Source: Paraspadella gotoi (Eukaryota > Animalia > Chaetognatha). Taken from it: 64,000 nt of DNA. Where the stretch lies: positions 1,307,554-1,371,553 of the forward strand of contig CM119266.1 of NCBI GenBank assembly GCA_051294375.1. Reading direction: 5' to 3'. Below the pieces are notes generated by a model. That model worked only from the letters and a program-made list of their open reading frames with translations, was not told where the DNA came from and made no database searches. Both the position numbers and the translations under genes were made by a program. This document shows, one piece after another, positions 5,675 through 9,844 of this stretch; position 1 is the stretch's first letter, and each line of letters starts with the position of its first letter.

Positions 5675-8600
5675 TCATTCAAACCACCTCAACCACCATC
5701 CCACCCAAATCCACGCCACCCACGCCAAATTGACGTTGATTGCCGCGCCACGGAGACTCAGCGCGTGTTGACGCCAAAAGTCGTGCGCTACAGGAAATCG
5801 CCGTCGACGGCACCACCGGGACAACGCCGTCGCTTGCAACCGCGAGCATGAGACGCACTGCGGAAGGAAGGAACGGGAAAGCGGCGGGGGCTGCGGCTGC
5901 GGCGGGGGCTGCGGCGGCGACCTCCACGAAATCGATCGAAGAAGCCTAGAGAGAGGGAAAAAAAAAAAAAAAGGAAATGGAAAATAATCCATTAATATTT
6001 TAGAATATCGAGTTTATTGTTTTCTTCATTTGTAAACATCATTCAATTGGGAGGCCCTCATGGTCATTAGCCAGTGATCAATATGCTAGAATACAGTTCC
6101 GTTCCGATTTCATTCATTCAATTGCGCAATCCTATATGGGAGCAATGGGTTAAGGAGCGAAAGAGGAAATACAGTGAGGGTTCGAGAGAGCGAGATAGCG
6201 AGAGAGCGAGAGAGAGAGAGAGCGAGAGAGCGAGAGAGCGAGAGAGCGAGAGAGCGAGGGAGGGAGCCTTGTTAAGTATCGATCGAGGGGATAAGTTTCG
6301 GTCAAGAAGGAAAGAGAGCAACGCATGTTTGAGTCGAAAAGTGAGTTTGTTGACGCCAATAAATAGATAAATTTTTACTTTACCCTTTGTTAATCTTCAT
6401 AAAATATATTTATAAACATAAATAAACAAGACTCGGTCAACTGATAACTTGACAAATCGCTGAGCAAAAGAAAACTTTTCGAGACGAGGTGAAGGAGAGG
6501 GTAAGGGTCTGGTGAGAGGTTAATGGAGGCGGAGTTTCTGAGTGGACCTGAGTGGTGAGGGCGAAACTGACCCCTTCGTCGTCGTCGTCGTCGTCGTCGT
6601 CGTCACCCGAGACGATGAGGAAGTTTGAAAGAGAAAATGACTAAGGCAATGAGGAGCCCAGGAAAGGAAAGGAGCGAACAAAAAAGGAGAGGAAAATGTC
6701 GAAAAAGAACATAACGTTTAATAGAAAAATTAAAACAAAACCAGATGACTCAAATGTAAACAAAACAAAGACTAAAAAGCGTACAAAAGGATTTTAACCT
6801 TATATAAAAAAAAAACCTTAAAAGGGATATTAAAAAAATTAAAATAAATTACTTTTCTTTTTACTTGTCTTTTCTTTAAAAACAAAAAGCGGCGCCAGTA
6901 GTCGCTTAGATTTGATTTTTAACGAATGAGCAACAAACTATAGGCAAGTTATAAGCGTTTTTAACGTAAGTGGGACTGACAGACCGACGGACAGACATAC
7001 CGACGGACGGACCGACCGACCGACTGACGGACCGACCGATCGAAAAATGACTTATAATAAAACGGGAAGGAGACGATACTTAACTAATAAAGAGTCAGGT
7101 GACCGCGTCACCTGCGATTTGTGAATTCGTGGGTCAACACTTGGGGGTCAGACTTTGAATTTCGTGAAATTCACGATTTCCTCTTCGAATGACTCATCGA
7201 TAGACGACGACGACGACGAGTGATTCAGTGATTCATTCACCTTCGACGTTTCACAACCAAAATATCGCCGATCGTAAACAAACCGAATGTTTTTAGTTAA
7301 GATAAACGAACCAAAAACTTAACGCAAAAAAAACAACCCAAAACGATTGAAGATAATGACTGGCCGTATCTTAGTCTCTCTCTCTCTCTCTCTCTCTCTC
7401 TCTCTCTCTCTCTCTCTCTCTCTCTCTCTCTCTCTCTCTCTCTCTCTCTCTCTCTCTCTCTCTCTCTCTCTCTCTCTCTCTCTCTCTCTCTCTCTCTGTC
7501 TCGCATTCCTCCGCTACTTTCCTCGTTAAAAACCCATCGATTCTTTCTGGATCAGATCCAGGCGCTCATTTTATCGGCCGATGGGTTAAAATCGGCTTCT
7601 CTCGTTTCACCCGAACTTAATTGCTAGTGGCTTCGATGGAGCGCTTTCTTCTTATAAAGATATTATTAGGGCTTGCTATGGTCTTATTCTTATTTAAATT
7701 AAATTAGATAACTGTTGAATTAATATTACTATAAAACTATAAATATTTTGTAACTAATATTTCATCTCCATTTATAATCTCTCTTTTAAAAAAACACGTC
7801 ATCCCCTTAAGGATTAACTTCACATCAGCGCCCCTCAGCGCTCCACCACCTTAACCCACTCTCCCCTTAAAGACTTTATAATTGAAAGATTAGATTTCCC
7901 GATCGAAGGATCCATCGTCCGACCGTCCACCGTCGATCGTCGATCGTCGATCGCTAACCAGAGTCGAGGAGGAAATCGATCGCTCGTTCGTCGTTTGAGA
8001 GGAAAATATTTAATCCACTTAGAATCTTTATTGAAATTTGAGATAAAAGAAGATGGATTGGGATTTAAACTTCTATCTATTAAAAGAAATATATAAAAAA
8101 ATGTACTCGCGGACTATATTATTTACGTTTAAAAAAAAAATATAATGACAAATACTTTTATAACCGTCCAGATTAATCATTAACCTATCGTCAGCGACAT
8201 CAAATCTTTTTGTGAAGTGAATTTGACATTCGATCCCATCTTGGCAAGATGACGAAAACCATAATAACCCAAATCAATTCTTGGACCCAACAGAAATTCA
8301 CTCCGCCCAACAAACCGTCAATCAGACCGACAATCTTACCCGAAAATAAGACCGACATTTCTCCAAAGAAAATCTTACCAGTCTCCGCCGGTTTTTATCG
8401 CCAGCGGCGGTTGATGATCGGCGTGGAAGTCTCCGCGTCGACGCCGCCGCGGCCGCCGCCGCCGCCGCGCGCCGCCGCCACTTCCGACGCCACCCTCTCG
8501 CACACCGCCGCCACGCCCCTTCGCCCACAGGTGTGACATCCCGTCGTCTCCCAGATCCGCTTCAGTCGGCGTCGCTGGGCCGGCGTCGCGTAACTTAAAA

Positions 8601-9844
8601 AAAAAACCAATGTATATTTTTTTAATATTTGATTTAATATTTAATTATTTGTGCCTAAAAATAAATGTTAAACGTACCGCTCTCCGGCTGGGAGTCGAAA
8701 GCCGGCGAAGGCGCCCGGTGCCAAAACGTCGCTCGGAGCAAAGACGGTGTAACGGCGCCGCGGAGAGGACGGCGTCGGCGTCGATTTCGAGACGCCGGAA
8801 AGCGAGAAGCGGAAGACGAAGTGAGCGAAGAGAAGGTGAAGACAAAAACCGGCGACGGAATCCAAAGGATCGAATAACCGGCGACAGAGCTGTCATCAAT
8901 GTTAACAAACTTTTTAAAAACTTATAAAACTGATAATAATTAATAAAATTGAAGGGAAACTAACTTAAAGATAAAATTCGTTTTATAGAATTGAATATTA
9001 AATTTTACTAAACGAAAGAATTTCAGTTATAAACAGATTTGAGAGTAAATTACTTATTCAAAGAACGAACGTGATATTTTTCTGAAACACAAATATTAAA
9101 ATACATCACTGAACAAAAATAATATAATATTTAGTATTTCTCGAGACGATGTGGTTTAATTTTTCCGGACTTTCGAGTCTGTCATTACCAAAGACCGACA
9201 AATCCCCAAGCGTCTTAAAGCGTCGCCGCGGGTCAAATGCAGATCCAAAATCAAATGAAGCATCGGATGCTGCAAAAAATGCTGCATCAGATTCAGACAC
9301 GCGAGGCGGAAGAGGAAATGCGAGGCGAAGACAGCAAGAGTTAGGGTAAGGAATCCAGCGGCGGAGGGAATGGGGAAGGGAAGGTCGGCTGGTGAGGATA
9401 AAGGAAAAATTAAATGACAGAAAGAGAGATTACTTCTCTCTCTCTCTCTCTCTCTCTCTCTCTCTCTCTCTCTCTCTCTCTCTCCCTGTCTCGTCTATGT
9501 CTCTGAATTTCTCACTCAATCTCCTTGTCTGCTTTTTTAATTTTTTTTATCTTTCTCTCTATCTCTCTCTTGCACACACACAAACCCGTAATCCTCAACG
9601 TCTTGAGTGCCCGATGAAACGATAGATGGAGACACGCGTATAAGAGGCTCCAGCCTGATGCCAACACAAGAGGGAGAGCGAGACGAATGAGATTGTGAAG
9701 AGGGAGAGCGAGAGGGTCAAATGACGCTAGCGGTGGAGGCGACGACGACGACGACGACGACGACGACGATGGCGCCACGACGATGAAAACGCAAAACGGG
9801 TGGACGCCGTCGATGGCGGCGGCAAATGCTGAGATCGGCGCCAT
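5675..9844 (-). CDS. Uncharacterised membrane protein (~385 aa) with an HNH-like Zn-binding domain (GCHTCG..ADHQPP..PQCVSCSRLQ); one frameshift in exon 4
   Basis: Exons 9844-9586, 9388-9189, 8889-8678, 8593-8379, 5945-5675, all GT-AG. Phases match if one base is restored in exon 4 (215 nt, needs 216). Translation: ..LKTLRITADLPFPIPSAAGFLTLTLAVFASH..VFAPSDVLAPGAFAGFRLPAGERYATPAQRRRLKRIWETTGCHTCG/..GDFHADHQPPLA..SFLPQCVSCSRLQATALS..LAWVAWIWVGWWLRWFE*. Start codon uncertain. Confidence 0.75.
6890..7090 (+). mobile_element. DINE-1/HINE-like non-autonomous element fragment
   Basis: Shares gcggcgc..agtcRcttagatt..aatgagcaa..aactataggc..taacgtaagtgggac plus a (GACN)n tract with 18367-18540. Confidence 0.55.

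Follow-up and report, generated by a model that had tools for sequence, protein, structure and literature searches.

A spliced chaetognath gene for a predicted membrane-tethered HNH-type nuclease, likely derived from a whole bacterial Rhs toxin tip

This report concerns a gene on the minus strand of a 64,000-nucleotide stretch of DNA from the chaetognath Paraspadella gotoi (NCBI GenBank assembly GCA_051294375.1, contig CM119266.1, positions 1,307,554 to 1,371,553 of the forward strand), which we call the window and to whose positions all window coordinates refer. It is a real, spliced animal gene, and its product is a fast-evolving member of a known, uncharacterised protein family that was flagged computationally in 2011-2012. 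The reading we favour, with a probability of roughly 0.6, is that the gene encodes a membrane-tethered, zinc-binding HNH nuclease which goes back to an old capture of a bacterial toxin tip and which clears nucleic acid at an internal membrane. The parts of this reading differ in strength. Judged from predicted helices, the protein is probably membrane-bound; its conserved residues and the models of its relatives make nuclease activity a fairly likely prediction; the clearance role, taken alone, is doubtful.

Probable origin of the membrane helices in an Rhs toxin tip

The region in front of the nuclease domain, which lay outside the search profile, has bacterial counterparts of its own. A profile of this pre-nuclease region built from the eukaryotic proteins scored 43.3 bits against the tip of an Rhs toxin from a Chloroflexota genome (L007), and 41.3 and 37.1 bits against two further sequences (P0124 and P0122, respectively), the next of 322 other carriers reaching 10.0 bits. 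In the controls, the best of 500 shuffles of each sequence stayed at or below 8.8 bits, reversed sequences scored negatively, and -9.0 bits was obtained for a tip that is Gly/Ala-rich and carries the same nuclease. When the family was aligned with the Rhs tips by hhalign, the three hydrophobic helices (from helix 1 on), the nuclease and the tail all fell within one match of 204 columns (probability 100, E 8.4e-40); a profile of the tail by itself matched weakly (15.0 bits for P0124, 5.2 for L007). Because the alignment with the toxin tip runs from end to end, the membrane anchor is likely the toxin's own pre-toxin segment, and eukaryotes likely took the tip whole from a bacterial Rhs toxin, membrane helices included. 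The initial annotation of this DNA had pictured a toxin nuclease joined to a separate membrane anchor, a view that has to be given up, since the anchor is itself homologous to the bacterial toxin tip.

The L007 tip ends a 2932-residue Rhs frame, in which it follows a DPSG site, and the next gene downstream is a DUF7003 gene. The pre-toxin segment recurs at another locus, L078 (64% identity, residues 8-134), and is followed there by PT-HINT and an AHH nuclease, which points to a segment that is swapped between toxins, as expected of a swappable delivery part. The Rhs tip with PT-HINT and AHH stands at L078:2845-4188; a second cassette combines a related segment with a different tip.

In the phylogeny, the eukaryotic sequences and the whole tips stand apart from other bacteria with an SH-aLRT (approximate likelihood ratio test) support of 95.8, and tips and eukaryotes separate from each other at 100/100. 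Whole tips are rare, with one among 401 genomes searched in the phylum of L007 (400 further genomes gave six partial matches).

Bacterial relatives and their neighbour genes

A DNA pattern of the two core motifs, searched in bacterial genomes, matched 77 loci, many of them at the end of long Rhs-type open reading frames (ORFs), and Rhs, PT-HINT and YD-shell domains are recorded for such carriers. A bacterial profile was made from 72 of these loci, after dropping one that was out of frame (L003) and four that were short (L033, L038, L048 and L055). It matched the exon 2-5 model of the window protein at 54.0 bits (best of 1000 shuffles, 4.7), and 20.7 bits remained against the whole model with the two search motifs masked. 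An ORF follows downstream at 73 loci, with clusters of 32, 13 and 12 members; Imm21 was found in all three members tested of the cluster of 13, and an Imm33-like family in all three tested of the cluster of 12. The kinship to bacterial Rhs toxin tips, which the initial annotation had proposed, is upheld.

For the domain itself, every Pfam and NCBIfam model stayed below its cut-off. A profile weighted towards bacteria gave 735 matches, the best 120 of which, as listed, looked bacterial; nine plasmid records match, and one bacterial query returned no phage match. Two side observations emerged. The commonest partner gene (the cluster of 32 loci, e.g. L004:4185-4568 and L016:288-665) encodes about 120-135 amino acids, gave no Pfam family over the cut-off in the five members tested, and may represent an unnamed immunity family. 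Several proteins (P0121, P0131, P0141, P0144, P0156, P0175, P0201, P0240 and G402:C1:410004-410696) carry two nuclease-domain copies in tandem, a built-in dimer layout.

A eukaryotic family from algae to echinoderms

A profile weighted towards the window protein matched 1498 representatives, and 14 of the 150 listed were picked by eye as eukaryote-like; a search with 11 of these 14 returned 55 proteins. Named members include Nematostella, Exaiptasia, Oculina, Desmophyllum, Acropora, Stylophora, Montipora, Acanthaster, Patiria, Asterias, Apostichopus, Corticium, Salpingoeca, Mucochytrium, Botryococcus, Trebouxia, a cercozoan and a record 'Fibroc', which we read as Fibrocapsa. The family ranges over corals, echinoderms, a sponge, a choanoflagellate, green algae and stramenopiles, and the relatives in algae and invertebrates that had been anticipated are indeed there. 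The Atlas clusters are 100% eukaryotic, with Cnidaria, Chlorophyta and diatoms commonest and no common Pfam family. Among eight members profiled, two or three hydrophobic segments precede the nuclease and often one follows it.

Matched with the profile of 14 eukaryotic sequences, the window model reaches 105.6 bits, versus 28.8 bits with the Rhs-tip profile, and its first two helices alone score 19.6-22.3 bits against the family's N-terminal profile; its third helix and tail are divergent, and a tail profile found no domain match. By these scores, the protein belongs to the eukaryotic whole-tip family of the Nematostella A7RQG3 type. It falls among the eukaryotes in all three trees (one of them a quick tree, another with four long or sister rows left out of the bacterial draw), which place it no more finely within them. 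A nuclease-less paralog group in corals, considered for 15 of 17 sequences without the motif, was rejected: those that were aligned all break off at one position, beyond which the sequence is unrelated, a pattern to be expected of single-exon gene calls.

Gene structure and integrity

The gene consists of five GC-rich exons (53-73% GC), and its introns of 197, 299, 84 and 2433 nucleotides are all bounded by GT..AG (Table 1). Nine public runs cover 7600-9420, all from one organism, and eight of them (X1 to X5 and X7 to X9) were compared with the window. None is recorded as RNA; X9 was treated as such because introns are skipped in it. This run joins 8593 to 8678 and 8889 to 9189 (ends CT..AC on the plus strand), so that introns 2 and 3 are spliced, and its loose end at 8378 is identical to window 5915-5944, which is the join of exons 4 and 5 and shows intron 4 to be spliced as well. 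The other seven runs compared, X7 and X8 among them, showed no joints. For intron 1, homology favours the join proposed in the initial annotation. Scored with a family profile that covers the first two helices, this join reached 22.3 bits, the best of 108 in-frame donor-acceptor pairs (next 14.2, then 6.1), with 1.5 bits for exon 1 alone and 7.3 for exon 2 alone. The five-exon gene drawn there has consequently been confirmed at three junctions in X9, and its first junction is placed by homology. A scan of intron 4 for GC-rich open AG..GT pieces found no credible further exon.

Table 1. Parts of the gene and of its frame break in window coordinates.
Feature	Position	Strand	Description
Exon 1	9844-9586	-	ATG at 9844; Ser/Pro-rich leader and first family-type hydrophobic helix; placed by homology
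Intron 1	9585-9389	-	197 nucleotides, GT..AG; contains a (TC)n run; 3' end retained in X9
Exon 2	9388-9189	-	Second hydrophobic helix and lineage-specific insert; X9 coverage and join to exon 3; profile match
Exon 3	8889-8678	-	Third hydrophobic segment and PS..L.PGAFA..LPA lead-in of the nuclease domain; both junctions in X9; alignments
Exon 4	8593-8379	-	Helix, first CxxC (CHTC, 8538-8527), Gly/Arg-rich loop, DHQPP (8419-8405)
Five extra bases	8500-8504		In the window, absent from 4/4 covering runs
GCC-repeat stretch	8431-8482		In exon 4; skipped in the read comparison, so that its sequence and frame are provisional
Intron 4	8378-5946	-	2433 nucleotides; skipped by the loose end of X9
Exon 5	5945-5675	-	Pro/Gln linker, PQCxxCSxxQ (5863-5834), H..SLR tail, Trp-rich hydrophobic end, stop

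As it stands in the window, the frame meets a stop after 289 residues, before DHQPP. One base had been thought to be missing from the G-run at about 8516-8519, an idea that the reads rule out: none of the four covering runs shows a change there, and the break consists instead of five extra window bases. X9, X3 and X2 are without the five letters at 8500 and the loose end of X5 agrees, which makes four of four covering runs, from three studies (X1, X4, X7 and X8 have no cover at 8500-8504). Most simply, the break is an assembly error or a rare allele, and the gene is very probably intact; all protein models carry X at the break. A break of this kind would let the gene escape annotation. Two runs differ from the window elsewhere, in each case as an allele or a paralog: X7 holds a divergent version of exon 3 (window 8678-8700) with three amino-acid differences and one silent change, and X5 an in-frame three-base insert in exon 2 (window 9377).

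About 350 bases past the stop codon, nine copies of a 70-base-pair unit, 91% alike, occupy window 4694-5328, and the X9 contig would by its length end near their edge. Window 9331-9430 contains a short stretch common to other places in the genome, with several-fold deeper contigs over the 5' end of exon 2 (X3 and X7). A piece of intron 3 (window 8597-8630) also recurs elsewhere in the genome and continues into other sequence in X1, X2, X3 and X4.

Nuclease signature and predicted fold

The spliced model is 383 residues long and contains all motifs quoted in the initial annotation, including the CxxC..DH..CxxC layout of an HNH-type zinc nuclease. Together, CHTC, DH (from 8419) and CVSCSRLQ (5857-5834) supply the signature CxxC, DH, CxxC and Q, and the four Cys, the D, the H and the Q are invariant in 53 of 53 aligned eukaryotic homologs. 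The loop between the first CxxC and DH measures 34 residues, versus 9-24 in the other eukaryotic members. Hydropathy predicts three N-terminal membrane helices and one C-terminal one, which bears out the hydrophobic segments described earlier at both ends of the protein. In the canonical HNH active site as defined in PMC5714182 (section 12), the metal is bound by an N or H residue in the first turn of the helix; in the window protein, this position holds Ser, and the invariant Gln follows three residues on. Six exon pieces gave no Pfam family over the cut-off, a single-exon search with the first 40 residues of exon 4 gave 30 candidates and no match, and exon 5 alone had no usable Atlas match.

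The fold was tested on models of one bacterial and one Nematostella relative. For the bacterial domain model (predicted local distance difference test, pLDDT, 96), HNH enzymes fill 12 of the top 14 structural rows. Its best rows are the HNH domain of ZRANB3 (Z 4.7, root-mean-square deviation 3.0, 70 aligned), T4 Endo VII (4.6) and GVE2 HNH (4.3), and Gme HNH was matched by sequence in the PDB (E 0.0032). In the Nematostella model (pLDDT 91.9), the nuclease is surrounded by long helices (residues 36-65, 74-100, 129-145 and 264-276). Residues 172-254 of this model match Endo VII, Gme HNH and McrA at Z 4.3-4.4; its helical part returned generic membrane-protein rows only (Z at most 5.3), and no fold could be named for it. 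An HNH fold is thus predicted, with HNH nucleases ranking best at modest Z.

Possible function and alternative readings

In the reading we favour, a zinc-binding HNH nuclease of about 380 residues would be held in an internal membrane by its helices and would cut DNA or RNA that reaches this membrane; an arrangement with an odd number of passes ahead of the loop is just one of the possible layouts. The four Cys would bind zinc, Asp and the invariant Gln would hold the catalytic metal, and His would act as the general base. The family would descend from a single old transfer out of bacteria into eukaryotes, with inheritance and losses thereafter, and membrane tethering may have replaced the immunity protein as a restraint. 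Its job would then be the clearing of foreign or organellar nucleic acid and not export as a toxin. The broader proposition that early eukaryotes captured the entire released Rhs tip, and that it still serves from algae to animals as a nuclease effector, crossing a membrane or tethered to it, that acts on bacteria after engulfment or on damaged organelles, we regard as unlikely.

Several observations count against this reading. The window protein is the most divergent member of the family, with the longest branch (2.31) and an odd composition, and approximately unbiased (AU) tests do not reject a position outside the other eukaryotes (p 0.50, 0.48 and 0.16). Only three whole-tip bacterial sequences were found, one of them with a taxon name, so that the donor and the direction of transfer are inferred, and the search that yielded two of the three was seeded with the nuclease part of L007. 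The X9 contig runs unbroken across the 9389 acceptor to 9420; intron 1 is unspliced there, and since this is the sole spliced run, helix 1 may be absent from some transcripts. The hydropathy peaks of the window protein are moderate (1.3-2.0). Ser takes the place of the canonical N/H ligand in 52 of 53 motif matches, and this position is not conserved in bacteria. Of the HNH fold similarity foreseen in the initial annotation, the ranking of HNH enzymes in the best structural rows of the relatives' models stands (Z < 5), but Foldseek returned nothing at E 0.001 for the bacterial or the Nematostella model, and all fold Z values lie below 5.5, a range read by the tool as possibly a common arrangement.

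The protein might still be a self-delivering weapon, its helices carrying the nuclease across a membrane; the target would be microbes that are engulfed or attached or, in cell death, compartments of the cell itself. The whole toxin tip has been kept, including a pre-toxin segment that is swapped between toxins in bacteria, many of the named carriers are aquatic feeders on, or hosts of, microbes, and the window copy evolves fast. However, the gene model has no Rhs shell or export domain, the window holds one copy of the gene, and the family is conserved from algae to echinoderms, a conservation from which Zhang et al. argue against a toxin role in their treatment of the eukaryotic form (PMC3113570); on balance, a weapon seems quite unlikely. 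These authors suggested a DNA-repair nuclease, which would act on nuclear or organellar DNA, and their accounts of the clade put this forward without experiment (PMC3113570, PMC3482391). The nearest solved folds do include the ZRANB3 HNH domain and T4 Endo VII, and the loop of the window protein is Arg-rich, but the conserved hydrophobic helices flanking the domain fit a membrane protein better than a soluble enzyme, and we hold repair to be improbable.

Activity itself might have been lost, leaving a catalytically dead zinc finger that would give a membrane protein a scaffold for binding nucleic acid or protein. The protein lacks the canonical N/H ligand, and inactive His-Me fingers are described in Smad MH1 and ENPP (PMC5714182, section 12). 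Yet the known dead groups are without the His, whereas D, H and Q are invariant throughout the 53 eukaryotic homologs, and Q is more than 90% conserved in bacterial tips with immunity-family neighbours (D and H being fixed by the search pattern), which renders a dead finger very improbable. Least credible of all is a gene decaying in this animal, as a transcribed pseudogene or null allele: the frame break in the window, the unspliced intron 1, the long branch, the low-complexity inserts and the three amino-acid differences in exon 3 of one run would suit it, but the five bases are missing from the four covering runs, which come from three studies, none of the seven key residues has been lost, the splicing of three introns preserves the frame exactly, and the sole other exon indel measures three nucleotides.

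An origin of the helices in a toxin tip makes a membrane nuclease, in place of a soluble repair enzyme, the working guess for the family. It also gives a direct test pair, namely the eukaryotic gene in tractable organisms (Nematostella, diatoms and green algae) and the bacterial tip with its downstream partner, and it flags an unnamed pre-toxin helical module besides the unnamed candidate immunity family.

Relation to published families and known systems

The initial annotation recognised no named animal family for this protein; the NGO1392-like/Tox-SuFu-Nuc clade had, however, already been noted in animals (PMC3113570, PMC3482391), and the window protein very probably belongs to it. As outlined by Zhang et al. 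(2012; PMC3482391), this clade has the residues CxxC, DH, CxxC and Q, the immunity families Imm-SuFu/13/21/33/38, and members in metazoa, choanoflagellates, stramenopiles, viridiplantae and apicomplexa, and also in mycobacteriophages; in the discussion by Zhang, Iyer and Aravind (2011; PMC3113570), the eukaryotic form is considered unlikely to be a toxin and maybe involved in DNA repair. The window family shares the four signature elements, and bacterial relatives with Rhs and HINT carriers and Imm21 and Imm33 neighbours; its named eukaryotic homologs fall into four of the listed groups (animals, a choanoflagellate, stramenopiles and green algae), with no apicomplexan among them. The portions of these papers that treat the clade suggest DNA repair and make no mention of membrane helices or a whole-tip origin (PMC3113570, PMC3482391). 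Literature searches by motif and name, with most subscription journals and all supplements outside their scope, found no later study of the family; the whole-tip origin is new here within that scope and may already be in print.

One bacterial ORF (L097) combines MafB and PT-HINT and is followed by Imm33-like, RraB and SUFU genes; by description, it fits NGO1392 as portrayed in the pertinent part of PMC4287609. This MafB-HINT toxin matches both profiles at hhalign probability 96, one of the matches having E 4.5e-9; MafB-type tips form a more distant sub-branch, with ADHKKP and no GCHTCG. The Chloroflexota Rhs tip (L007/G001; P0122, P0124) aligns with the family over three helices, nuclease and tail, and differs in one more hydrophobic segment in front, in the Rhs frame and in the DUF7003 gene behind it. 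Unlike a bacterial polymorphic toxin system, the window protein is without an N-terminal export or Rhs region.

The Tox-GHH domain of teneurin and DFF40/CAD are presented as toxin-derived HNH domains in animals in the relevant part of PMC3417536, and so resemble the window family as polymorphic-toxin HNH domains kept by animals. They belong to other HNH clades, and Pfam scans of the homologs gave no match to either; moreover, teneurin kept the Rhs/YD shell, whereas the window family kept only the tip. If a captured toxin tip is indeed what the window family descends from, it would be a second whole-part toxin capture beside teneurin, with the shell kept there and the payload here. Solved zinc-binding HNH nucleases (ZRANB3 HNH, T4 Endo VII, GVE2 HNH, Gme HNH, Cap5 and McrA) rank highest by structure when the nuclease part of either model is compared, but at Z below 5 and 11-21% identity, and they have no membrane helices; in the alignment with Gme, N/H follows the second CxxC where the window family carries S/Q.

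Other features of the window

The window is animal DNA, with neighbour genes that carry SH3, Serine_rich and CAS_C (p130Cas-like), LIX1 and androglobin domains; a scan of 12 of its 81 long ORFs gave these three kinds of gene and no immunity family. The p130Cas/BCAR1-like gene (SH3, Serine_rich, CAS_C) lies at 16141-21491 on the minus strand and a LIX1 exon at about 27930-28265 on the plus strand. The androglobin-like gene at 35976-39617 (plus strand) forms one uninterrupted, AT-rich frame of 1213 codons amid a region of intron-rich genes with GC-rich exons, and is possibly a retrocopy. Finally, near-identical frames about 6.4 kilobases apart, at about 49200-53100 and 55600-59400 and with N gaps nearby, point to a tandem duplication or a doubling in the assembly.

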